This document shows, piece by piece, positions 5,535 through 45,201 of a stretch of 64,000 nt of DNA. This DNA is from an uncultured delta proteobacterium. Its GTDB lineage: Bacteria; Desulfobacterota; Syntrophia; Syntrophales; UBA2192. Position numbers and translations under genes: made by a program. How positions within the stretch are numbered: position 1 is the stretch's first letter; every line of letters starts with the position of its first letter. The stretch lies in contig CAVPJD010000031.1 of assembly GCA_963705165.1 (NCBI GenBank), positions 100,872 to 164,871 of the forward strand. Reading direction: 5' to 3'. The notes under the pieces are model-generated. The model searched no databases, was not told the DNA's origin, and was given only the letters and a program-made list of their open reading frames with translations.

Positions 5535-6620
5535 ATGAGCAGCCTCTTCAGCATCGAACTGCTTCCCGCCCTCGACGGGGAGTGCCTGTGGATCGAGTAT
5601 GGCGACCCGCTGGCTCCGCGCCGGATTCTCATCGACGCGGGCCGGGCGGGCACCCACAAGGAAGTGCTTCGCCGCATCGAAGCAGCCGCAAGGCCTGTTC
5701 ACTTCGAGCTGATCGTCATCACCCACGTCGACCTGGACCACATCGGGGGTATCCTGAAGCTGCTCGCCATGAAGAAGCCGCCCCTCACCGCCGGGGATAT
5801 CTGGTTCAACGGGCGTCGCCACCTCGACGAGGGCACACCCGTGCCGCGCGGGCCCATTCAGGGCGAGGAGATGACCTCCATCCTCGAGAGGATCAAGCTG
5901 CCCTGGAACGAGGCCTTTCGCACCGGTGGAGCCGGGCAATCCCATGCGGTTGCAGTCCCCGCAGACGGCAAGCACCCGCAGAAGAAGCTGCCGGGTGGCA
6001 TGACCCTCACCGTCCTGTCGCCCTCCCGAGAAAAGCTTCAGCGGCTCATCCCCCTGTGGGACGAGGAGGTCCGAAAGTGGCGCGAACGGGGCGGAATGAA
6101 GTTCGAGGAGCAACCCCTCCGCGCAGGAGAACCCGCAAAGCGGCTCAACTTCGAATCGCTCGTCTCGGCCCCGTTCACCCCCGACGACTCGCCCTTCAAC
6201 GGCTCGAGCATCGCCATGCTAGCAGAGTTTGACGGCAGGCGGGCCCTCCTGGGCGCCGATGCGCACCCGGATCTGCTCCTGGAAGGCATCCGCGCAGCAA
6301 CCCCTGACCCCCGCGGGCGTCTGCGGCTGGACGCCTTCAAGATGCCCCATCACGGCAGCCGGCGAAACCTTAATCGGGAGATCGTCGAGGCCGTCGACTG
6401 CCCACGGTTTCTCGTCTCGACGGACGGCAGCCGCTTCGGTCACCCTGACCCCGAGGCTCTCGCCCGGGTCATCAAGTTCGGCGGCGAGAGGCCCGAGCTG
6501 ATCTTCAACTACCGCACGGAAAAAACCCTTGCCTGGAAGAAACCCGCCTGGATGAAGAAGTACGGCTACAGTGTCCGCTACCTCAATGCCCCGAAGGACC
6601 CCGGAAAAGTCATCCTGTAA
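5535..6620 (+). CDS. MBL-fold metallo-hydrolase (ComEC/Avs1a-like)
   Basis: LPALDGECLWI, ILIDAG, THVDLDHIGG, NGSSIA, LLGADAH, KMPHHGS, STDGSRFGHPD. Confidence 0.85.
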   Translation: MSSLFSIELLPALDGECLWIEYGDPLAPRRILIDAGRAGTHKEVLRRIEAAARPVHFELIVITHVDLDHIGGILKLLAMKKPPLTAGDIWFNGRRHLDEGTPVPRGPIQGEEMTSILERIKLPWNEAFRTGGAGQSHAVAVPADGKHPQKKLPGGMTLTVLSPSREKLQRLIPLWDEEVRKWRERGGMKFEEQPLRAGEPAKRLNFESLVSAPFTPDDSPFNGSSIAMLAEFDGRRALLGADAHPDLLLEGIRAATPDPRGRLRLDAFKMPHHGSRRNLNREIVEAVDCPRFLVSTDGSRFGHPDPEALARVIKFGGERPELIFNYRTEKTLAWKKPAWMKKYGYSVRYLNAPKDPGKVIL

Positions 6621-6741
6621 AATCCTTCTCCCGACACCCACACCCCAGGAAAGACATTCCCCTCACGGCACCGCTCCCAACGGCAGATGACGCGAATTTT
6701 GCATGGCATACCGGCAACATGATTCCTGGAGGTCTTCACAC

Positions 6742-7707
6742 ATGACAACGACTGGCCGTTTTGGAAAATTCGCTATCGTTTTCGCAATGGTCCTGCTTAT
6801 CGTTACGGGTATTGCCGGGCTCTCGCAGGGCACGGGGTATATCGTGGGACAGCACACGATGGCCCTGGAGGTGATCATGCCGAAGGATAATGCTGCCTTC
6901 AAGGTGGGCGAAAACGTTCACGTCACCGTCAGGTCCAGCGGTTTCTCCGGCCTGAAGGTTACCGTGAAGAACCAGGCGACGGGCGCAGAAGAAGAACTGA
7001 ACGCATCGTTGATGAAGAGTGAGGGGACTACCCCCTCGGCTCCAAGGATTTGGGAAGTCCTCTGGCCGACGGCCGGAAAGAAACCCGGCATGTACCTGTT
7101 CACGATGAAAGGCGCCTCAGGCAGCACGGTGACACCAACGACGAAAACCGTCACCATTTCGGTCATCCAGCCATCGGGACCGGCAAAGATCACATTCAAG
7201 GAGCCCGCCGGGGGCCGCCAGGTCAAGACCGGCGAGACGGTAACCGTCGCCGTCACGGCGACGGGCGTCCACAGAATGGAGTTCTCTGTCAGGGATCAGC
7301 AGACGGGAGTTGAAAAAATCCGGCCGTCGGCCCACTTGGCCGCTTCGGACGAGTTCAGGACCTCATGGTCCACCGAGGGGCAGCAGAAAGGCAACTACCA
7401 GATCATCGCCCGCGGACTCGGGGCCGACGGGAAGAAGCTGGCCGAGGAATCCGTCACCATGACCGTCACCGGCGGCGCCCCCGCCCTCAAGCCCCAGGCT
7501 GCCGCAACACCCGTTGTGGTGCCAAACGTTGTGGGCATGTCGGAGTACCGGGCAGTCGTCGCGCTGGACAAGGCAGGACTGAAGATCAACCCGGCAAAAT
7601 ATGTCTCCACTGCGAAACAGGACCTCTGGGGTGTCGTGGTGGAGCAGTCGGTCAAGGCCGGCACAAAGACGGGGGAGCCCGTCACGATCACCGTCGGCCG
7701 GAAATAG
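6742..7707 (+). CDS. Secreted/anchored protein with two Ig-like domains and a C-terminal PASTA domain
   Basis: N-terminal hydrophobic segment; two beta-rich W.T.G..G.Y repeats; VVPNVVGMS...A...L...GL. Confidence 0.75.
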   Translation: MTTTGRFGKFAIVFAMVLLIVTGIAGLSQGTGYIVGQHTMALEVIMPKDNAAFKVGENVHVTVRSSGFSGLKVTVKNQATGAEEELNASLMKSEGTTPSAPRIWEVLWPTAGKKPGMYLFTMKGASGSTVTPTTKTVTISVIQPSGPAKITFKEPAGGRQVKTGETVTVAVTATGVHRMEFSVRDQQTGVEKIRPSAHLAASDEFRTSWSTEGQQKGNYQIIARGLGADGKKLAEESVTMTVTGGAPALKPQAAATPVVVPNVVGMSEYRAVVALDKAGLKINPAKYVSTAKQDLWGVVVEQSVKAGTKTGEPVTITVGRK

Positions 7708-8248: not shown

Positions 8249-11200
8249 CTACTGCAGGTTGCCGCTCGTGTCGTACTTCACGATGAAGCCGTCGTTGCCT
8301 CCGGCATTGCTCGCACCGTCGAGGCTGCCCGAGGTGTGTCCCGTCATGAAGGTGGTGCCGCTCGTATCGACGGCAACGGACCGCCCGTAATCCCCCGCCG
8401 TTGTCCCCAGCATGCTCGTCCACTGCCGGGTTCCAGACGTGTTGTACTTGAGCAGGATCAGGTCGTGGCTCCCAGCAGGCGTGAAACCGTCGAGCGCGGC
8501 ATTGGTGTTTCCGGAGATGTAGGCATTCCCGCTCGAATCGACGGTCAGCCCGGAGGCGACGTCGTTGCCCGCGGCGCCGTGGAAGACGGACCACTGCTTC
8601 GTGCCCGAGGAATTGAACTTCGCCAGGAAGATGTCCTCCGTCGTGCCGCTTCCGTCGCTGTTGGTCCCCCCGTCGAAATGGCCATAGGAATGGCCCGCCG
8701 CGTAAACGTTTTCGGACCCGTCGACGGCGACGCCGTAGCAGTAGTCGAACACGGTGGACCCGAGCATCCGCGTCCATTGCCTCGTCCCCGAGGAATTGTA
8801 CTTGGCGACGAAGATGTCCTGGATGCCGGCATTCGTCTCCCCGTCCAGGCTGCCCCGGCTCATGCCCGAGATATAGACGTTGCCGCTCGAGGCGACGGCC
8901 ACGGCGTAGGAGTAGGTCAGCGTCGCGTTCCCCAGCAGGCGCGTCCATTGAAGCGTCCCCGACGAGTTGTACTTGGCGAGGAAGGCGTCGGTGCCGCCGG
9001 AATTCGTCTCACCCCCCAGGTTTCCGTCCGTAAAGCCGGAGATAAAGACATTGCCGCTGGCGTCGACGGCGACGGACCAGGCGGAATCGCTCCCCGCCGT
9101 CCCCAGCAGGCGTGTCCACTGCCGGGTGCCGGACGAGTTGTACTTGATGAGCGCGGCGTCCGAGCCCCCTGCATTGGTCTCGCCGTCGAGGTTACCCGAG
9201 GTGTAGCCCGCGACGTAGATGTTGCCGCTGCCATCGACGGTGACGGCCCCCCATCCGGACTCGTCACCCACGGCGGTGCCCGAGAGACGCGTCCACTGCC
9301 GCGCCCCCGAGGCGTCGTACTTCGTGAGGAAGATGTCGTTTCCGCCGCTGTTGGTCTCCCCGTCGAGGGCTCCGGCCGTGTAACCAGCAACGTAAATGTT
9401 GCCGCTGGAATCAACGGCGACCCCGTGGCCACGATCTGTCGATGCGGTCCCGATGAGAACCGTGCCGCCCCAGGTTCCCGACTGCGTGGTGGCGTTCACG
9501 GCGGTGCACTGGGCCGAGACGTTCCCGGCCGCGTCGGCTGCCGCCACCCGGTACGCATAGGTGGTGCCCGCCGAAAGCCCCGTATCGGAGTAGCTCGTCC
9601 CCGCAGGAGACGCAATGAGGCTTCCGTCGCGGTAGACCCGGTAGCCCGCCACCGCCACGTTGTCCGTCGAGGCCGTCCAGGAAAGATCGATCCGCGACGT
9701 GGAGACCACCGTGGCCTGCAGGTTTGTGGGGACCGAGGGCGCCGTGGCATCGAGCGTCGAAACGGCAACGGCCCCGCACTGGGCCGATGCATTGCCAGCT
9801 GCGTCATAGGCCGCCACCGTGTAGCTGTAGCTCGTTACCTCGGAGAGGCCCGTGTCGGAGTAACTCGCCCCGGCCGTGGTGCCGACCTGGCTGCCGTTGC
9901 GGTAGACCCGGTAACCCGTCACGCCCACGTTGTCCGTCGAGGCCGTCCAGGTCAGGTTGATCTGGGAGGCGGAGGCCCCGGTCCCCTGGAGGTTCGAGGG
10001 GACGGAGGGCGCCGTGGCATCGGCCGTGGAGACGGCGACGGCCCCGCACTGGCTGGACACGTTGCCCGCGGCGTCGTAAGCGGCCACCCGGTAGCTGTAG
10101 CTCGTCGCCTCGGTGAGGCCTGTGTCGGAGTAGCTCGCCCCGGCCGTGGTGCCGACCTGGCTGCCGTTGCGGTAGACCCGGTAACCCGTCACGCCCACGT
10201 TGTCCGTCGAGGCCGTCCAGGTCAGGTTGATCTGCGAGGCGGAGGCTGCCGTCCCCTGGAGGTTTGCGGGCACCGACGGCACCGTGGCATCCAGCGTGGT
10301 GACGGCCACGGCCCCGCACTGGGAGGACTCGTTGCCCGAGGCATCGACAGCCGCCACGCGGTAGCTGTAGCTCGTGGCCTCGGAGAGCCCCGTGTCGTTG
10401 TAGCTCGTACCGGCGGGAGAGGCGACAAGGCTGCCGTTTCGGTAGACCCGGTAGCCTGTCACGGCCAGGTTGTCCGTCGAGGCGGTCCAGGTCAGGTTGA
10501 TCTGTGAGGTGGAGGCTGCCGTTCCCTGGAGGTTCGAGGGAACCGACGGGGTTGTTGCATCGGCGGTGTAGACGGCAACGCCACCGCAGAGGGAAGACAA
10601 ATTGCCCTCGTCGTCGTAGGCCGCGATCGTGTAGGTGTAGCTCGTGGCCTCCGAGAGTCCCGTGTCGGAATAGCCTGTCCCGGCCGTTGTCCCGACCTGG
10701 CTGCCGTTTCGGTAGACCCGGTAGCCCGTAACCCCGGCGTTGTCCGTCGAGGCTGTCCAGGTCAGATCGATCCGGGATGTAGAGGCGGCAGTCCCCTGGA
10801 GGTTCGAGGGAACCGACGGAGGGGTTGCGTCGACCGTTGTTGCGGAAAGAGGCGAGCTCTGGGAGGATTCGTTGCCCTCTGCGTCGTAGGCCGCCACCCG
10901 GTAAGTATAGGTGGTGTACTCGGAAAGCCCCGTGTCGGAGTAACTTGTGCCCGTGGTGGTTCCGATGACGGCGCCGTTGCGGTAGATCCGGTAGCCTGTT
11001 ACCCCCACGTTGTCGGTGGATGCCGTCCAGGCCAGATCGATCCGGGAAGTCGATACGGCTGTCCCCTGGAGGCTCCCGGGAGCCGAGGGGGCCGATCCGT
11101 CCGCCGTGGCGACAAAGAGTGTGGTGCTCTTGGCGGATTCATTCCCGATCCAGTCGAAGGCGGAGACCCGATACCCGTAGGAGGTTCCCGGAGTGAGGCC

Positions 11201-11446
11201 CGTGTCGGTATAAGACGTCAACGGGGTGCTTCCCACACGGGAGCCGTCGCGGTAGACCCTGTACCCCAGCATCACGAGATCATCCTGCGACTCCGTCCAG
11301 TTCAGCTGGACACTGTCCGAAGATACGGCGGCAGCCTGTACACCCGTGGGAACGGACGGCGGGTACTGGTCACTGGAGGATCCACAGCCGTACAGCGAAG
11401 ACAGGACTATCAGCAGTGCAGCTGCGCAACAGGCGCGATTCATCAT
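8249..11446 (-). CDS. Surface lipoprotein: 7 fibronectin type III repeats plus 7-bladed SBBP beta-propeller
   Basis: Lipobox LYGC; seven 90-aa PS.P..L....L.W.ASTDN....GYRVYR.G repeats; seven AVD.SGN.Y..G repeats. Confidence 0.9.
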   Translation of the reverse strand: MMNRACCAAALLIVLSSLYGCGSSSDQYPPSVPTGVQAAAVSSDSVQLNWTESQDDLVMLGYRVYRDGSRVGSTPLTSYTDTGLTPGTSYGYRVSAFDWIGNESAKSTTLFVATADGSAPSAPGSLQGTAVSTSRIDLAWTASTDNVGVTGYRIYRNGAVIGTTTGTSYSDTGLSEYTTYTYRVAAYDAEGNESSQSSPLSATTVDATPPSVPSNLQGTAASTSRIDLTWTASTDNAGVTGYRVYRNGSQVGTTAGTGYSDTGLSEATSYTYTIAAYDDEGNLSSLCGGVAVYTADATTPSVPSNLQGTAASTSQINLTWTASTDNLAVTGYRVYRNGSLVASPAGTSYNDTGLSEATSYSYRVAAVDASGNESSQCGAVAVTTLDATVPSVPANLQGTAASASQINLTWTASTDNVGVTGYRVYRNGSQVGTTAGASYSDTGLTEATSYSYRVAAYDAAGNVSSQCGAVAVSTADATAPSVPSNLQGTGASASQINLTWTASTDNVGVTGYRVYRNGSQVGTTAGASYSDTGLSEVTSYSYTVAAYDAAGNASAQCGAVAVSTLDATAPSVPTNLQATVVSTSRIDLSWTASTDNVAVAGYRVYRDGSLIASPAGTSYSDTGLSAGTTYAYRVAAADAAGNVSAQCTAVNATTQSGTWGGTVLIGTASTDRGHGVAVDSSGNIYVAGYTAGALDGETNSGGNDIFLTKYDASGARQWTRLSGTAVGDESGWGAVTVDGSGNIYVAGYTSGNLDGETNAGGSDAALIKYNSSGTRQWTRLLGTAGSDSAWSVAVDASGNVFISGFTDGNLGGETNSGGTDAFLAKYNSSGTLQWTRLLGNATLTYSYAVAVASSGNVYISGMSRGSLDGETNAGIQDIFVAKYNSSGTRQWTRMLGSTVFDYCYGVAVDGSENVYAAGHSYGHFDGGTNSDGSGTTEDIFLAKFNSSGTKQWSVFHGAAGNDVASGLTVDSSGNAYISGNTNAALDGFTPAGSHDLILLKYNTSGTRQWTSMLGTTAGDYGRSVAVDTSGTTFMTGHTSGSLDGASNAGGNDGFIVKYDTSGNLQ

Positions 11447-36812: not shown

Positions 36813-37028
36813 ATGGAGTCCCGTGATCACACGGAGCGGGAAGTCTGCGGGCACTGCGGAAAGAGACTGTCGTTCATCAATTGCACCGGATGTGAGATAC
36901 CCCTCTGTCAGGAGTGTGCCTGTTTCGAACTGATCGGCTCCGGATGCGGCACCGTTATCCCGGCTTATTACTGCCTTCTCTGCGTCAAGGATGCCAGGAT
37001 AAACCCGAACGCGGTCTTTTACATCTAA
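36813..37028 (+). CDS. Small Cys-rich putative zinc-binding protein
   Basis: CGHC...CTGC...LCQEC...GC....YYCLLC; AGAGGA SD. Confidence 0.7.
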   Translation: MESRDHTEREVCGHCGKRLSFINCTGCEIPLCQECACFELIGSGCGTVIPAYYCLLCVKDARINPNAVFYI

Positions 37029-37670: not shown

Positions 37671-37882
37671 TACAAGCCTCCGGTCCGCGCAGATCGCACA
37701 GCACGTGAAGGAATATGTTGTAAGGCAGCTCGGTCTGAAGGCTTCGTTATCTCTATCGGCTCACGCCGCCCTTTCCTTTAGCGATTTTTTCTTTCTCTGT
37801 CCCGCCCCATGCCGACGAAGCCATTCTGATCGCTCTCCGGAGCGCGATCGAACAGGGCTGAATTGGCGGCCTGCCGCCGTAT

Positions 37883-37899
37883 ATACGCCACGGGGGTAT
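37883..37899. promoter_or_regulatory. Second CsoR/CstR-type operator
   Basis: ATACGCCA-C-GGGGGTAT: right half identical to, left half 2 mismatches from, the 4470-4486 operator. Confidence 0.65.
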
Positions 37900-37923
37900 T
37901 CCCGGCCAACCGCGTAATATGGG

Positions 37924-37951
37924 TTGACAATTCTCAGGGTGCCGTTACAAT
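37924..37951 (+). promoter_or_regulatory. sigma70 promoter of cytochrome/rhodanese operon
   Basis: TTGACA-16 nt-TACAAT, 34 nt upstream of ATG 37985. Confidence 0.7.
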
Positions 37952-37984
37952 ATTTTGCACCGTCCAACCCTTCCATGAGGACCT

Positions 37985-39244
37985 ATGAAGGCTCGGCTCA
38001 CAATCCTGATCAGCCTGCTCATCGCTCCTCTCCTTCTATTCGTGTCTTCATCGAGCACTGCCAATAACCCCAGCAGCTGCGTCACCTGCCACACCGACGA
38101 GGCCATGCTGAAGAAAACCTGCAAACCCTTCGTGATTCCCGAGGGTGAGGGCGAGGGGTGAGCGGGGGCGCCTCCGCCGGTCAAGGCGGAAACCTACCAC
38201 CTGAGTTTCCTCGTCGACAAAAAGCTCGTCGAGACGGACAAGCACTTCGAGAAGGGCTGCGTCCAGTGCCACAAGGGAAACGACAAAGCAGGACGACAAG
38301 GATGCCGCCCACGAGGGGATGGTGAAGCGCCCCTCCGATGACCTGGCCCTCTGCGGGGAGTGCCACCAGGAGATCGCCGCGAACTACAAAAAATCTCTCC
38401 ACTACACGACGATCGGCCAGCGCAACCGGGTGGTCAAGAGGATGTCGAAGGAGGAGACGAAGGTCTTCGACGAAAAGGTCTTCGAAAAATCCTGCCGGTC
38501 CTGCCACGCCACCTGCGGCGACTGCCACGTGAAATCGCCATCCATCGGCGGGGTGAGCGTCGGCCTCATCAACAAGCACAAGTTCGTGCGGAAAGACGAG
38601 GGCAAGACCTGCGCCTTCTGCCATGGCGGCCGCGTCTACCCCGAGTACACAGGCGAGTACGGCGGCAACGCCGACGTCCACTACCAGAAGGGCATGATGT
38701 GCATGGACTGCCACACCATGGACGAGATCCACGGCGACGGCAGGGCCTACGCGCAAAAGGAGGAGGTCCGCGACCGGCCCGCGCTGCACCGACTGCCACG
38801 AGCCCGGCAGGGAGACGAAGCTGACGGCCCGAGTGGCCCACCTCAAGCACAGCGAGACGGCCAGCTGCTTACGCCTGTCACTCGGCGGGCGAGTACCGGC
38901 AGTGCTACGACTGCCATCTCGGCGGCGGCTCCGAGGCCAAGCCGGGCTTTTTCCTGGGGACGAGCCCGAGGAACCGCAAGGAGATCACAACGCTGCGCGT
39001 CATCCCCACGGTGCGTGAAAGCTTCAAACCCGCAGGAATCCAGCAGGCGAACTTCGACGCCCTGCCCAACTACTGGGACGCTCCGATCCACAACATCCGC
39101 AAGCGCACGGAGAGGACCCGAAACTGCGACACTTGCCACGAAGACAGGAAGGGCTTTCTCACCATGGAGACCCTCCTGAAGAACAGCTCCCGGACGAACC
39201 TGGAGCTGATCCATAAACCGAAACCCATACCCATCAGCAAATAA
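37985..39244 (+). CDS. Periplasmic 11-heme cytochrome c selenoprotein (Sec59, UGA 38159-38161); three apparent frameshifts (~38290, ~38782, ~38868)
   Basis: Signal peptide, CVTCH, EGEGEG-TGA-AGAPPP in frame to CVQCH; further CGECH, CRSCH, CGDCH, CAFCH, CMDCH, CTDCH, CYACH, CYDCH, CDTCH; SECIS-like hairpin after TGA. Confidence 0.82.
38173..38190 (+). promoter_or_regulatory. Bacterial SECIS element
   Basis: TCCGCC-GGTCAA-GGCGGA hairpin; G-initiated loop starts 18 nt after UGA. Confidence 0.75.
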
Positions 39245-39254
39245 GGAGGTTTTT

Positions 39255-40139
39255 ATGGTCAAAGCGAAAATGAAAGTCATGGTAGGCCTGCTGGCCGTTC
39301 TTCTGCTCCTGCCGGCCGCGGCATCGCGGGAGAGCCCTTCGTCACGACGGAGTGGCTCCAGGCCAATCTTTCCAAGGTAACGGTTCTCGATGTCCGCAAG
39401 GTGGAAGAATACAACGCCGGCCACATCCCCGGCGCCATCAACGTTTTCTATGGCGTTTGGGGCATTAAGAAGGGGGTGCTTCATCAACGAGCTGCCCGCC
39501 GACGACGATCTGAGGGACATCCTGTCGGCCAACGGCATCGAGCCCACCACGAAGGTTGTGGTGGTCTCGAAGAACGAGACCATGCCGTTTCGCACGGATG
39601 CGACACGGGTCGCCTGGACCCTGCGATACGCAGGCGTGGAGAACGTGGCCGTCCTGAGCGGAGGCATCGAGAAATGGGAAGCGGAAAAGAGGGCCCTTTC
39701 GAAGGACGCCGTGAAACCCAAGGCGAAGGCCTACAAGGGCAAGTTAAACAAGCAGTACACTGCGAACAAGGCCTACGTCACGGGCGCCATGGGCAAGGCT
39801 GTGCTCGTCGATGTCCGGCCGCCGGAATTCTACAAGGGCGAGAAGAAGTTGGACTTCGTCGCCAAGACGGGCCGCATCAAGGGCGCCGTGAACCTGCCGC
39901 CCGGAGCGCTGTACAATGCGGACGGCACCTACAAGAGCAAGGCGGAAATCGAGGCTATCGCCAAGCCCGTCGTGGGGGCCGATCTCAACAAGGAGATCAT
40001 CGTATATTGCGACACCGGAAAGGTCTGCACGAACTGGTGGCTGGCCCTCAACGACCTGCTGGGCTACAACAACGTGAAGGTCTATGACGGCTCCTCCATG
40101 GAATGGATGGCGGACCCCGCTGCGCCTTCAGAGCCCTGA
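39255..40139 (+). CDS. Secreted tandem-domain rhodanese/sulfurtransferase; frameshifts near 39325 and 39475
   Basis: AAGGAGG SD, signal peptide, LDVR..EEYNAGHIPGA, L.GG...W, DVRP..FY.G, GRI.GA, IVYCDTG active-site loop, VYDGS..EW. Confidence 0.88.
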
Positions 40140-40265
40140 GCCTGTAATGGATCTGTACTGATGTAATCCCGGCACCCCGCGGGGTGCCGGGATCTCACGA
40201 AAATGCGTTGCCGGAATTTGAACCGAAAATTTTCCGTCTTGCCGCCCTGAACTGCGGGGACTCTC

Positions 40266-42267
40266 ATGAGCCGGTTCAAGAAAGCCTGTGTCCTCCTTCT
40301 CCTGGCCCTGTTCGTGCCGCTCACGCTGGATGCCGCGCGCGCGCCGGACTGGAAGCACGAGGACATCTGGCTCAAGAACGAGCAGGGGCAGCGCATCACC
40401 CCCACGAGAAACAGCGCCGACGCCTATTCGCCCCACCGGACCTGCGGGACCTGCCACGGCTACATGACCATCACGTCGGGCACCCACTTCCAGCAGGGCT
40501 TCGACGAGATGAAGGACGGCTACGACCCGAAGCGCCCCTGGGTCCTCTCCCCCGGCAACTTCGGCAAGGGGGGAGACCCGGGTACATTCACCGAGCGGGT
40601 CGCCGCGAAAAAAAACACCAGTGCCCGCGACATGGGGCACTCCACCTACGACTGGATCGCCGCCGCGGCGGCAAGGGCCAGGTCATCGCCACGGCGTCCG
40701 GCTGGACCCACCCCGGCGGCGGGCCGATGGAGTTCGGCAGAAAAGCCGACGGCAGGCGCGACCTCTCGAAAAACCTCGTCCAGGGGGAGCCCCTGAAGCC
40801 CCTGCCTCTGGACGGGGACTACACCTCCCGCCACACCCCCGACGGGAAAAGCCGTTTCCGGGAGAGCGGTGTCGTGGAGGGGGACTGCCTGATGTGCCAC
40901 CTGAAGGGCTATCGCCTCGATCAGAGAAACCGGCAGCTCGGACTCCGCAACTACCGCTGGGCAGCCACGGCGGGCGCAGGGCTGGGCGAGATCCGGGGCT
41001 CCGTTTTCGCCTTCGACAACCCCGAGGCCGGGCCCGCCGTCGAGGGATACGACAGGGGGTCGTGGAACTTCTCGACCCGCCCCGCCGTCCGGTACGCATG
41101 GGATGACCGCAAACTCTTTACGCCCGAAGGGAAATTCAAGGGGAGCCGGCTGATCAACAAATCCGTCGAACCGGACAACTGCACCCAGTGTCACCGCCAG
41201 ATGGACGGCCAGAAGTCGGGAACCCTCTACCTGCCCGCGGGCGACCTTCACCTCAAGGCGGGGCTTCGCTGCACCGACTGCCACACCCTGGCGGGAAAGA
41301 CGCAGGCCGAACGCCTCCGGCACCGGATCGGCAAGGGGTGGTCGCCCACGGCCACCGCCCGCAACGACCTCGACGGGGCGGGAATGAAGACCTGCGCGAA
41401 CTGCCACCTCGAGGGCCAGTACAAGCCAACCCGGGCGGGCATGCCCAAGGAAGCCAAAAACCCCGAGAACATCCACCGCTCGCTCTTCCACAAGGCGACG
41501 TTCCATTTCTACCTGCTTCACTGCTCGGCCTGCCACGCCTCGGAAAGAAAGACCCGCAGCGTCTATCTCGTGGACTACAGCACGGGACAGCCGGCGTGGT
41601 ACTCGACGGACAAGGCCGCCCTCGTCACCCGACCCGACGACATGAAACAGATGGCGTCGGAGCTCTGGAAGCCCTGGATGGACCGACACGAACGCGCCAG
41701 GGGCGATGGCGAGCGTTATGTCCCGGCAGTGCCCAAGGTGACGCAGTGGTTCGGGGAGATGATCTCCGAGGGAATCGTAAGGCCCATCGGTCTCGAACAC
41801 GTGAGGAAAGCGGCTGCGGGCCAGAAAAAGCTCACGGTGGTCGAAGTCGCCACCCATAACGGCGAGAAGGTGAAGCAGCACCACGGTGGCCACCGAGCAG
41901 GACATGCTCCTCATGATCAAGGCCCTGAGCGACATGGGATTTAAAAACGTCGTCTTCGTAGCCGATCAGCTCTACGAACTGAAGAAGGACAAGATCCAGG
42001 GACGCCCCGTGCCGGCGCTGACGGGGGCCGTGATGTTCCCGATCTACCACGGCAACCTGCCCGTGTCGGCGAAAAAGACCCTGGGACAGAAGGGCAATAA
42101 AGACGGGTGCGCGGACTGCCATGCCGACAACTCGCCCTTCTTCACGAAGCTCAAGGTGCAGGGGCGTGGGGAAATTCCTCAAGGACAGTTACCCGACCCC
42201 GAAGGAGCCCATCGCGGAGCCGCAGATGGTGGACTGGGGACTGACGGGAGTGCCGGCCTCGGAGTAG
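40266..42267 (+). CDS. Periplasmic multiheme cytochrome c (7 CxxCH); frameshifts near 40665, 41880, 42165
   Basis: Signal peptide; CGTCH, CLMCH, CTQCH, CTDCH, CANCH, CSACH, CADCH across frames; ends WGLTGVPASE-TAG. Confidence 0.8.
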
Positions 42268-42339
42268 AAGACAGGGACCAGGGTCTAGGGTATAGGGTGA
42301 GAAAAGAGGGTCCAGGGTCAAGGGGACAGGGTATAGGGT

Positions 42340-43117
42340 ATGGAAAAGAGCGTGTGCTTCATGACTGTGCCAAATACTCTCTGATGCTCGGTGGATCATG
42401 CCTTACGGCATGTGATCCTCTCGTTGCGCTGGCGGCTTGCGGAAAGCCTGCGGAGGCCCCGCCGCCGTGGAAGGTTATCGACGCCTCGACGCTTCGCGCC
42501 ATGATGGCCTCCGACAAGGGACTTCCCGTGTACAACACGATGAGCGAGCTCGAATGCCTCGATCATCGGATTCCCGGTACCCGCTGCCTGGCCTGCGAGG
42601 ATGTCGAGAACAACCCATCCGTATTGCCTGCCGACAAAGGACCGTGACATCGTCTTTTACTGTGAGAGTGCGGGATGCTACCGGAGCTGCCGGGCTGCTG
42701 ATGCGGCCATAAAGGCTGGCTACAAACAGGTTTATATTCTGCAAGACGGGATCCCGGCCTGGAAGCAGGCGGGCTATGCCATGGAGACGATCGAGCGAAT
42801 CCCGCGTGGATCGATCCAGTCGGTGCGGGCCCAGTCGCTCAAGCAGATGCTCACGGAGCGCAAGGACATACTCCTTGTCGATGTCCGCTCGGAGAAGTCC
42901 TACAAGGAAGGCCACATCGAAGGGGCATTGAATATACCGCTGTACCGGTTCAGCAGCAGATACGCCGAGATCCCCCTGGACCGCACGGTGGTGCTCGTCG
43001 ACGACCGCGGGCTTCCGGACGTTCCTGGCGGGGAGCTACCTGGAGATGAAGGGCTACAGGGTCATGAGGCTCTTCGGCGGCATGCAGGGCTGGCAGGAAA
43101 TGAAGGCAGCGAAGTGA
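42340..43117 (+). CDS. Tandem rhodanese-domain lipoprotein; start uncertain, frameshifts near 42640 and 43012
   Basis: LAAC lipobox; HRIPG, IVFYCESAGCYRSC, GYKQVYILQDGIPAWKQAGY; second domain DVRS..SY..GHIEGA with DDRG (Cys-less) loop. Confidence 0.78.
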
Positions 43118-43151
43118 CGGGAAACTCTCCCGAACCAAACGGATGGAATCG

Positions 43152-45019
43152 ATGAAGATCGAGGCAGGACAGAGGCGAAAGGGACTCCGGGCAGGATCTT
43201 CTTCTGCTGGCGGTATTCGCCGTCCTCTGCCTGCCCCTTCCCGCCCCGGCGGCCCAGGACTGCCGGTTCTGTCACGACGAGCCGCTCTACCGCGTCGATT
43301 TCAACAAATCGATCCACGCCAACAACGGCTGCACGAGCTGCCACGTGGGGATCACGAACATCGAGAAGCACCGCGACGGCAAGGAGAAGCCCGCCCCCGT
43401 CGACTGCGGGAGCTGCCACCAGGAGATCGCGAAAGAATACCGGAACAACTTCCATTACATCCAGGAAGACTTCCGCTGCAGCGACTGTCACCGGAACATC
43501 CACTCGATCAGGCAGGACAAGAACAAAAACGTCAAGCTCGCCATCATCGAGAAGTGCACCGAGTGCCACGGCAACGCAGACTACACGGCCTCGGGCCACG
43601 GCGAGGCCGTCCTGAAGGGAAACCAGGACGCGGCGGCCTGCTCGGATTGCCACGGCCTTCACAACACCCGGGTGTTCCACACCTCACTGGAGCAATACCC
43701 CGCCGAGGCGCGCGAGTTCTACACCCAGAAATGCAAGCGCTGCCACGCCGACAGCGCCATGATGAAGCGAAACAACCTCTCGGATAAAATGGTCGCCTAT
43801 TACGAGGGCACCTACCACGGAAAGGTCCAGGAACTGGGCTACCCGGCTCCGGTGGCCGGCTGCGGCGACTGCCACACCAAGCACAACATCCTGCCGAAGG
43901 AGGACCCCCGTTCGAGCATCCACCCCGACAACCTCGAGAAGAACTGCGGACGCTGCCACACGGGCTTCCATACCCGCTTCCTGAGCTACCAGGCGCACCC
44001 CGATTACAAGGACCGGGCCAAATACCCTGCCCTGTACGTCACGTTCCTCCTCATGGGGGCGCTTCTCGTCGGGACGCTCGCTTTCTTCTGGGTCCACACC
44101 ATCCTCTGGTGGCGGAAGGTTTACTGGGAAAACGACCGCATGGAAAGAGAGGGGATCGTGCCGCGCTCGGCGGTCGCAACGGGCGAGGGCCTCCAGCAGG
44201 TGGAGCGTTTCTCCGTCAAGTACCGGATCATGCACGCGCTCCTGGTGATCTCCTTCTTCACGCTCGTGCTGACCGGGTTCCCCCTGAAATATGCCGGGAC
44301 GGAGTGGGCCGCAACGCTCACGCGCCTCTGGGGCGGCGCGCACATGGCAGGGCTCTTCCACCGCGGGGCGGCCTTCCTGCTGATCGTCGGGATGGCCTAT
44401 GTCAGCTTCGAATCCCTGCGTTTCCTCTTCCCCAAGGGCGAGGGCAAGAAGGGCTGGCTCAGCCGGCTGCTCGGCCCCGACTCGCTCTTCCCGAACCTGA
44501 AGGACCTCCAGGACTTCAACGGCAATGATCCGGTGGTTCTTCAACAAGGGCGAGCCGCCGAAATTCGACCGCTGGACCTACTGGGAAAAGTTCGACTTCC
44601 TGGCCGTCTTCTGGGGCATGTTCGCCATCGGCGGCTCCGGGATCCTGCTCTGGAAGCCCGAGTGGTCCTCTTACCTCGTGCCCGGCTGGGTCCTCAACAT
44701 CGCCGCCCTGGTGCACTCCGAGGAGGCGCTGCTGGCGGCCCTGTTCATCTTCACGATCCACTTTTTCAACACGCACTTCATCCCGAACAAGTTCCCCATG
44801 GACCGGCTCATCTTCACGGGGACCTACCGGCTCGAAGAGCTCAAGGAACAGCGGCCCCTGGAATACGAGCGCCTGGTGGCCGAGGGACGCCTGGAGTCCA
44901 TGAAGCGCGGGCACCCGAGCATCCCGCTGAAGCTCATCTCGGCCACTTTCGGCCTGGGAAGCCTGCTGCTGGGTCTTTTCCTGACCGTGGCCATCCTGTG
45001 GTCGATCCTGTTCGGGTAG
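43152..45019 (+). CDS. CbcL-like protein: nine-heme c domain fused to cytochrome b membrane domain; frameshifts near 43190 and 44520
   Basis: CRFCH, CTSCH, CGSCH, CSDCH, CTECH, CSDCH, CKRCH, CGDCH, CGRCH; ERF...RIMH, TGFPLKY, HR, FDRWTYWEKFDFLAVFWG, HSEEALLA..FIFTIHFFN. Confidence 0.85.
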
Positions 45020-45086
45020 GACGGGGATTTCCCTTCATGTTTCACGGACCTTACCCTCGATCGAGCTGACATCCGCATGAAAATGA

Positions 45087-45124
45087 AGGCAGAGTCTATG
45101 GGCTCTGCCTTTTTTGTTTTTTTC
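45087..45124 (+). terminator. Terminator of the cytochrome/rhodanese operon
   Basis: AGGCAGAG-TCTATGGG-CTCTGCCT followed by long T tract. Confidence 0.78.
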
Positions 45125-45201
45125 ATGCTATTAAAGATTTGCGTTTTCGACCAGATGACGGGACAGACCGAATAGACCAGATAGACTGAATCGACCAGCC
45201 C

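Follow-up and report, generated by a model that had tools for sequence, protein, structure and literature searches.

Five consecutive genes, all encoding exported proteins, occupy positions 37985-45019 on the forward strand of the window analysed here, a 64,000-nucleotide stretch (positions 100,872 to 164,871 of contig CAVPJD010000031.1, assembly GCA_963705165.1) from an uncultured member of the Syntrophales. The first gene, g1, encodes a multiheme cytochrome with an in-frame UGA that, judged by its conservation across species, is a selenocysteine (Sec) codon, and the second, g2, encodes a rhodanese to which the g1 family appears functionally coupled. In a six-frame reading of 37800-45200, in which the frames of the genes jump, the locus is laid out as follows.

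37924-37951, forward strand: sigma-70-like promoter-like site, TTGACA-16-TACAAT, with 11/12 consensus matches, 34 nt upstream of the g1 start
37985-39244, forward strand: g1, undecaheme c-type cytochrome and predicted selenoprotein, with a signal peptide, 11 CxxCH motifs and an in-frame TGA
38159-38161, forward strand: in-frame TGA (Sec) of g1, residue 59, after 58 codons, in the motif GEGEG-U-AGAPPPV
38172-38191, forward strand: hairpin resembling a selenocysteine insertion sequence (SECIS), with a 6-7 bp stem that begins 11 nt past the TGA and the loop GGUCAA
39255-40139, forward strand: g2, secreted tandem rhodanese, with an inactive N-domain and an active C-domain bearing a YCDTGKVC loop
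40266-42267, forward strand: g3, exported heptaheme cytochrome of 669 aa that has a signal peptide and seven CxxCH motifs
about 42384-43117, forward strand: g4, lipoprotein (lipobox LAAC|G) that carries two rhodanese domains, the first with FYCESAGCYRSC
43143-45019, forward strand: g5, c domain with 9 CxxCH motifs fused to an FdnI/HydC-like cytochrome b membrane domain
45085-45112, forward strand: intrinsic terminator-like hairpin of 12 bp (with its T-tract, 45085..45122), recognized by sequence

Between g1 and g5 the same reading revealed no further open reading frame (ORF) and no molybdopterin subunit. A preliminary description of this DNA had proposed a promoter-to-terminator unit of five exported proteins without a molybdopterin subunit, comprising cytochromes with 11, 7 and 9 hemes, two rhodaneses with recognizable motifs, a UGA with SECIS at residue 59, and a CbcL-like fusion. 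All of these elements and their coordinates are borne out, the SECIS as a SECIS-like hairpin, the flanking signals as sequence matches and the likeness to CbcL as one of architecture. The promoter-like site is a consensus match only, as two such sites occur in 8.7 kb against 1.4 expected. Pfam and NCBIfam back the rhodanese and cytochrome b assignments, and match g1 and g3 to generic heme domains only.

The g1 product begins with a signal peptide and a first CxxCH motif, followed by the TGA and, in three frame segments, by ten further CxxCH motifs, which places Sec at residue 59/60 of about 418, in a G-U-A-G-x-P-P loop between heme motifs 1 and 2. Past the TGA, g1 encodes no second signal peptide and no Met until after heme motif 2, and thus ten heme motifs would be maturable only by read-through from the upstream signal peptide. 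A search with a protein fragment of g1 found orthologues in 25/41 genomes, including that which holds the window (G000:C31, a 2.7-Mb metagenome-assembled genome [MAG] of 35 contigs and 84% completeness) and 12/17 others of the same genus, as open frames of ~356-361 aa that start just past the TGA. The TGA stands at the same place in 17 loci from three families of the order, within the strongly conserved motif GEGEG-*-AGAPPPVKAE. Scanning one genome per species, we found 248 loci encoding a g1 relative, and examined the best 80 of these 248, which derive from Syntrophaceae, Smithella, Syntrophus, Syntrophorhabdaceae and Nitrospirota MAGs. In 79 of these 80 species-representative loci, spread over three lineages (Syntrophales, Syntrophorhabdia and Nitrospirota), the codon is TGA, and in one it is CGA; tblastn alignments continue in frame across the stop, with coding conserved on both sides. 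The sole CGA (Arg), near position 9181 of L045 (JBHGBI010000008.1), occurs in a locus that also lacks g2, keeps g3-g5 and has a weakened downstream hairpin, a single case of joint loss.

The hairpin was tested by its own pairing count, since the RNAalifold consensus picked a weaker structure. Over 77 distinct sequences, 84% of cells are paired, compared with 28-54% when the partner is slid, and the G-U of the loop is invariant. One pair changes from C-G to U-G in 12 sequences and, in compensatory fashion, to G-C in 4. The z-score of a single-sequence fold of the SECIS region (-1.2) is uninformative alone, and an Rfam scan of 37800-38500 returned chance-level matches only, and no family for the hairpin. 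As for the machinery of Sec insertion, the genome holding the window encodes selA, tRNA-Sec, and a selD with an in-frame TGA of its own (C15:24305-25234), while selB scores above cut-off in 4/4 relatives carrying the operon. Cys occurs at or beside the Sec column in 13/27 aligned distant homologues (30-38% identity) and, in a second alignment, in 12/34 distant representatives with a residue there; about a dozen more representatives start right past the Sec column, as truncated Sec forms would. Retention of the UGA and SECIS in 79/80 species, together with Cys-bearing homologues, is on comparative grounds the signature of a catalytic residue.

The company that g1 keeps is similarly conserved. 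The g2 gene carries Pfam Rhodanese (PF00581, E 1e-23) in two stretches. Of the 75 loci long enough to contain it, 55 have g2 directly downstream of g1 and 65 have it at some point in the locus, and the g2 catalytic Cys is kept in 65/65 homologues that cover it. Two of ten long representatives scanned, P0161 (715 aa) and P0185 (652 aa), are fusions of a g1-like cytochrome to a C-terminal tandem rhodanese. P0185 starts just past the Sec column, as if truncated at the UGA. In addition, the model of an Atlas cluster with 106 members aligns to g1 residues 63-418, and Rhodanese is annotated in 100% of these members. Given near-universal synteny, conservation of the catalytic Cys, and fusion into single polypeptides, the conserved core in these genomes is the Sec-cytochrome with an active tandem rhodanese, and the synteny and fusions indicate that the g1 family is functionally coupled to rhodanese.

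In the lineage of the window, this core appears wired to the heptaheme cytochrome, the rhodanese lipoprotein and the CbcL-type protein. Conserved synteny of the whole operon, which the preliminary description had expected, therefore holds in part: the pairing of g1 with g2 is near-universal, but the five-gene unit is not invariant, as, among the 51 loci that extend 6.5 kb or more downstream, 28 contain the full set of g3, g4 and g5. For g3, no NCBIfam, Pfam or PDB family was found beyond its heme motifs, and a fragment of it in the Protein Atlas falls in generic multiheme clusters only. Its PDB matches, all to Taq polymerase, were discarded as spurious. The lipoprotein g4 matches Pfam Rhodanese (PF00581) at E 5e-21; its second domain lacks a catalytic Cys, and C74 and C84 are kept in 29/29, and C109 in 21/29, of the homologues that cover them. 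In g5, a signal peptide and nine CxxCH motifs in about 250 residues precede about 6 hydrophobic segments, and the matches of its b-domain lie below cut-offs (TIGR01583, 38.9 bits; PF01292, E 0.002). Where g3-g5 are absent the neighbours vary, and some Smithella loci have flavoproteins exported by the twin-arginine translocation (Tat) pathway together with hexaheme cytochromes. In L107 (6388-8550, 11232-12797) and L085 (6892-8499, 10622-12818), for instance, Tat-signal flavoproteins of ~520 aa and small hexaheme cytochromes flank g1, with or without g2. These flanking proteins resemble flavocytochrome reductases, and might provide an alternative electron input. Just upstream of the operon in the window lies a Cys-rich zinc-ribbon-like ORF of 71 aa (36813-37028, forward strand), a counterpart of which is also found upstream of the operon in G009, a genome of the same genus (L012 2516-2869).

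The intact orthologue of g1 lies at L012:3651-4904. Across 81 g1 sequences the 11 CxxCH motifs and nine further His are invariant, and since there are only nine such His, two of the 11 hemes have no conserved distal His. Sec is 99% and M238 95% conserved in the same sequences, which makes these residues candidates for the two hemes concerned, or for an open substrate site. Apart from the Sec position, the only Cys residues that reach 90% conservation are those of the heme motifs. Of 3350 candidates in a word-index protein search with g1, 510 were relatives at E <= 0.001, and a library of representatives at 50% identity yielded 672 at E <= 0.001, of which 95 reached E <= 1e-30. Most database entries of the family are ~346-aa fragments that start past the UGA, and the names given, where there are any, are for the most part 'hypothetical protein' or 'cytochrome c3 family protein', with two JGI entries named sulfurtransferase. 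Searched with g1 alone, the PDB gave nothing below E 0.07, and the g1 superfamily profile matched only generic heme regions of PDB entries for GSU1996, octaheme tetrathionate reductase (OTR), MtrA, NrfB and others. The cytochrome selenoproteins named in the relevant part of a selenoproteome review of May 2026 are ExtKL, the GSU2204 family and the OTR family (PMC13188914), none of which corresponds to g1, and our literature search for the g1 family found only papers on ExtKL, also called MccSep. As far as the literature was searched, then, g1 represents a widespread and undescribed selenoprotein family, which has been missed as public annotation truncates the protein at the TGA.

We propose, with confidence no better than evenly balanced, that the operon encodes a menaquinol-linked periplasmic branch in which g1, in concert with g2, acts as a Sec-dependent reductase of sulfane sulfur, by analogy with MccSep. 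The concept of a Sec-containing multiheme sulfur reductase has been known since August 2026, when MccSep was reported, and the demonstration that MccSep is a Sec multiheme polysulfide reductase strengthens the functional inference for the present operon. In the proposed scheme, menaquinol would be oxidised by the CbcL-like nine-heme/cytochrome b protein g5, and the heptaheme cytochrome g3 would relay the electrons to the Sec-cytochrome g1. The soluble g2 and membrane-anchored g4 would hold, in the form of a cysteine persulfide, the sulfane sulfur of polysulfide, elemental sulfur (S0) or thiosulfate, and offer it to g1, the selenolate of which would attack the persulfide to form a Se-S intermediate; reduction of this intermediate by the hemes would then release sulfide. 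Such chemistry would be of the same kind as that of MccSep, on a different scaffold, and without the Cys-ligated heme of MccSep. Thus, of the rhodanese-linked sulfur reductase envisaged in the preliminary description, the link to rhodanese stands, through synteny and gene fusions, whereas polysulfide or S0 as the substrate, along with which way electrons flow and what Sec does, is what we infer.

The dsrA gene was not found in G009 or G020, both 100% complete, nor in the genome holding the window, and it is present in G016 and G027. The match in G027 (C1:1906918-1908082) is split, with an in-frame TAG, through error or a broken gene. As dsrA was not found in G009, a complete genome with all five genes, the operon appears independent of sulfite reduction, and polysulfide or S0 would accordingly fit better than thiosulfate. 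The 24 runs listed as containing the window stretch are freshwater or sediment metagenomes, and the operon probably lets syntrophic sediment bacteria pass electrons to sulfur compounds. If the proposed function is true, Se-dependent heme enzymes for the reduction of S-S bonds arose at least twice, on different scaffolds, and the main syntrophs that degrade fatty acids, aromatics and alkanes in sediments and digesters gain a sulfur-linked electron sink. Such a sink would have implications for how syntrophs compete with methanogenic partners or bypass them, and for the cryptic sulfur cycle of freshwater sediments. A bolder extension, which we regard as doubtful, is that Sec is the sixth ligand or immediate neighbour of one of the hemes without a conserved distal His, and so forms the first natural Sec-heme catalytic centre. 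Combined with rhodanese, this centre would support a hidden, Mo-independent sulfur respiration in the 'obligately syntrophic' Syntrophales, in Syntrophorhabdia and in some Nitrospirota, evolved independently of MccSep.

Several observations weigh against reading g1 as a Sec-dependent sulfur reductase. Covariation in the hairpin is slight, as the same bases encode the conserved APPPV. No selB was found in the 84%-complete genome that holds the window, and the best candidate there proved to be IF-2. Among the 120 closest database proteins, eight are full-length, and these have R, W, S, Y, W, A, A and R at the Sec position; the one checked at the DNA level is L045, with its CGA. As these full-length homologues carry no Cys there, close relatives can evidently lose Sec without a Cys substitute. 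The rhodanese link has its own exceptions, in that about 10/75 loci are without g2, with L085 and L096 having no rhodanese of any kind within 9 kb, and in P0161, a rhodanese fusion, the Sec column holds Tyr. Further, g1 has no conserved second Cys, so the mechanism of MccSep is not directly transferable. Rhodaneses also serve selenium, tellurium, arsenic and cyanide chemistry, and Syntrophales are not known as sulfur reducers.

The first alternative is that the operon reduces or detoxifies chalcogen oxyanions such as selenite or tellurite, with Se rather than sulfur handled by the rhodaneses and selenite converted by g1 to Se(0) or selenide. In NCBIfam, the families closest to these proteins (ExtH, ExtN, ExtM, ExtO and ExtS) are labelled as belonging to a 'selenite/tellurite reduction operon', and the carrier organisms themselves use selenium. 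The matches to these Ext families are, however, far below cut-offs (42-75 bits versus 200). MccSep also reduces selenite, but its Vmax/K0.5 on this substrate is sevenfold lower than on polysulfide, which proved to be the physiological substrate (PMC13510729). Moreover, a quinol-linked chain of 27 hemes resembles a respiratory branch rather than a trace-element pathway, and overall we consider this alternative unlikely.

Similarly unlikely is the second alternative, in which the operon encodes a thiosulfate or tetrathionate reductase: either g2 splits thiosulfate into sulfite and a persulfide that g1 reduces, or Sec acts as the active-site Cys does in TsdA and OTR. The best family match of g2, to the thiosulfate/3-mercaptopyruvate sulfurtransferases (PRK11493, 96.7 bits), favours this reading, and the superfamily profile touches the octaheme tetrathionate reductase 1sp3 (E 6e-13), in the heme region only. 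A Sec form of the OTR family is also on record in the portion of the review cited above (PMC13188914). Set against this, the match to TIGR04315 is negligible (16.7 bits), MccSep is inactive on both thiosulfate and tetrathionate (PMC13510729), and where dsrA was not found (G009, G020 and G000), sulfite would have no sink.

A third alternative dispenses with catalysis at Sec, and treats the operon as a general conduit for periplasmic or extracellular electron transfer, to metals or by direct interspecies electron transfer (DIET), with Sec and the rhodaneses as non-catalytic accessories. At the Sec column, the residue in many superfamily members is indeed W, Y, H, L or another, and Pfam detects MtrC/MtrF-like domains. 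CbcL of Geobacter feeds extracellular acceptors, as related in part of its published account (PMC9129911), and multiheme cytochromes of Smithellaceae are discussed as DIET markers in a passage of another (PMC13685792). Yet the operon has neither an outer-membrane porin nor a surface cytochrome; pure electron transfer leaves the fusion and synteny with an active rhodanese unexplained; and a costly UGA and SECIS retained so widely, with Cys in homologues, points to a catalytic residue. On balance such a conduit seems improbable.

A last concern is the integrity of the operon in the window, where the five genes hold 12 uncompensated indels relative to the G009 locus (ten insertions and one deletion of a single base each, and a gap of 10 nt), all of them outside homopolymers. 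The g1 gene has three 1-nt insertions (near 38290, 38781 and 38869), and frames are broken in g2 near 39323 and 39480, in g3 near 40666, 41877 and 42158, in g4 near 42636 and 43012, and in g5 near 43197 and 44520. G009, a 100% complete genome in 5 contigs, has each of the five genes unbroken and in collinear order. From four of the 24 runs listed, three of DNA (X1, X2 and X4) and one of an RNA library (X17), we compared Logan contigs over 37900-45100. These contigs carry the opposite indel at 11 sites of the 12 (38288, 38776, 38871, 39323, 39480, 41877, 42158, 42635, 43012, 43198 and 44518), and frequently do so in two or three of the runs. The remaining site, 40666, was not among the rows printed, and an X4 contig across it has 10 gap letters. 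Leaving the opposite indel aside, some of the contigs match the window at 99-100% identity: X4 record 27 differs from it by one gap and no other letters over 186 nt, and X1 record 4 by one gap and three other letters over 570 nt. Once the frame is followed, the genes show no premature stop and no other decay.

As the genes are open in G009, and Logan contigs carry the opposite indel at 11/12 sites, the 12 frameshifts are assembly consensus errors and the genes are intact in nature, as the preliminary description had anticipated in ascribing the fragmented ORFs to indel errors. Elsewhere the window holds unbroken ORFs of 600-1065 aa (for example 8252-11446, 1065 aa), so the errors are locally dense at the operon (12 in 7 kb). 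Two nearby selA copies in the genome holding the window (G000:C24:2181-3547 and 5882-7249), one intact and the other in two overlapping frame pieces, were also noted, and the split copy is probably another assembly frameshift. Contigs of X17 fall on 23/30 bins, and one (38016-38207) spans the TGA with no differences; we do not count this cover as expression, since DNA in the library is possible and contigs give no expression level, and uncovered bins are uninformative. That the frameshifts are real, and the operon a pseudogene in this organism, is very improbable, for although a density of 12 frame-breaking indels outside homopolymers, amid long intact ORFs, might suggest decay, four independent runs contradict it in contigs nearly identical to the window, no decay is visible in the followed frames, and the assembly is a 35-contig, 84%-complete MAG in which the second selA copy is split too. 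More broadly, in long-read MAGs local consensus errors alone can make heme-rich operons resemble pseudogenes.

Among known systems, the Sec-dependent sulfur reductase proposed here most invites comparison with MccSep (ExtKL, GSU2937-2936) of Geobacter sulfurreducens, described in Science Advances in August 2026 (PDB 9wt8-9wtc; PMC13510729). MccSep forms a tetramer in the periplasm, and each subunit carries five hemes, of which heme 2 is His/Cys-ligated via C239; U325, on a C-terminal immunoglobulin-like (Ig-like) domain, is essential, and the enzyme is a polysulfide reductase required for S0 respiration (PMC13510729). The five hemes and C-terminal Sec bear out the preliminary description, which gave ExtKL fewer hemes and a more C-terminal Sec. 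Both g1 and MccSep belong to the multiheme c-type cytochromes of the periplasm, each with a single Sec encoded by UGA and a SECIS-like hairpin after it, both are clustered with a rhodanese (ExtH in the case of MccSep) and with further multiheme and b-type cytochromes, and both occur in Desulfobacterota and Nitrospirota; chalcogen-bond reduction of the same kind is plausible for g1. They differ in heme number (11 in g1, five in MccSep) and in the setting of Sec, which in g1 lies in an N-terminal loop (residue 59/60, G-U-A-G) and in MccSep on its Ig-like domain at the C-terminus (D-G-U-P), and whereas MccSep has the heme-ligating C239, g1 has no conserved Cys available for a heme. Intact g1 had no match to NF040886 at E <= 0.1 (cut-off 250 bits), nor did the genome holding the window at E <= 0.01, and five operon-carrying relatives had none above cut-off; against 9wt8, g1 gave no phmmer match at E <= 10, and the superfamily profile only 19.6 bits. 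By these comparisons g1 is not a member of the MccSep/ExtKL family, and represents a non-orthologous scaffold.

The nearest named relative of g1 is instead ExtN (NF040967; 42.2 bits, where the cut-off is 200, and 25% identity across 236 aa), the decaheme cytochrome of the Geobacter extHIJKLMNOPQS cluster. The two are of similar length and their heme motifs 2-9 are collinear, but ExtN has 10 hemes and no Sec-bearing loop, with ~10 residues between its first two heme motifs, and sequence similarity thus marks g1 as a distant relative. The match of g2 to ExtH (NF040901) is likewise distant, at 74.7 bits against a cut-off of 200. CbcL (GSU0274), the inner-membrane quinol oxidase of Geobacter, combines nine c hemes with six helices that hold two b hemes, according to part of its description (PMC9129911). 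The likeness of g5 to CbcL is one of architecture (signal peptide, nine CxxCH motifs and about six FdnI/HydC b-type helices), and unlike CbcL, g5 is encoded together with its presumed periplasmic partners. In Wolinella, the Sud/Psr system uses a periplasmic rhodanese-type sulfur carrier to feed a quinol-linked reductase, an arrangement which the present operon would share, save that it has no molybdopterin subunit. Chalcogen chemistry at a heme centre has also been discussed for the His/Cys-heme sulfur enzymes TsdA and SoxAX (PMC13510729); g1 differs from these in having no conserved heme-ligating Cys, and Sec may take that part.

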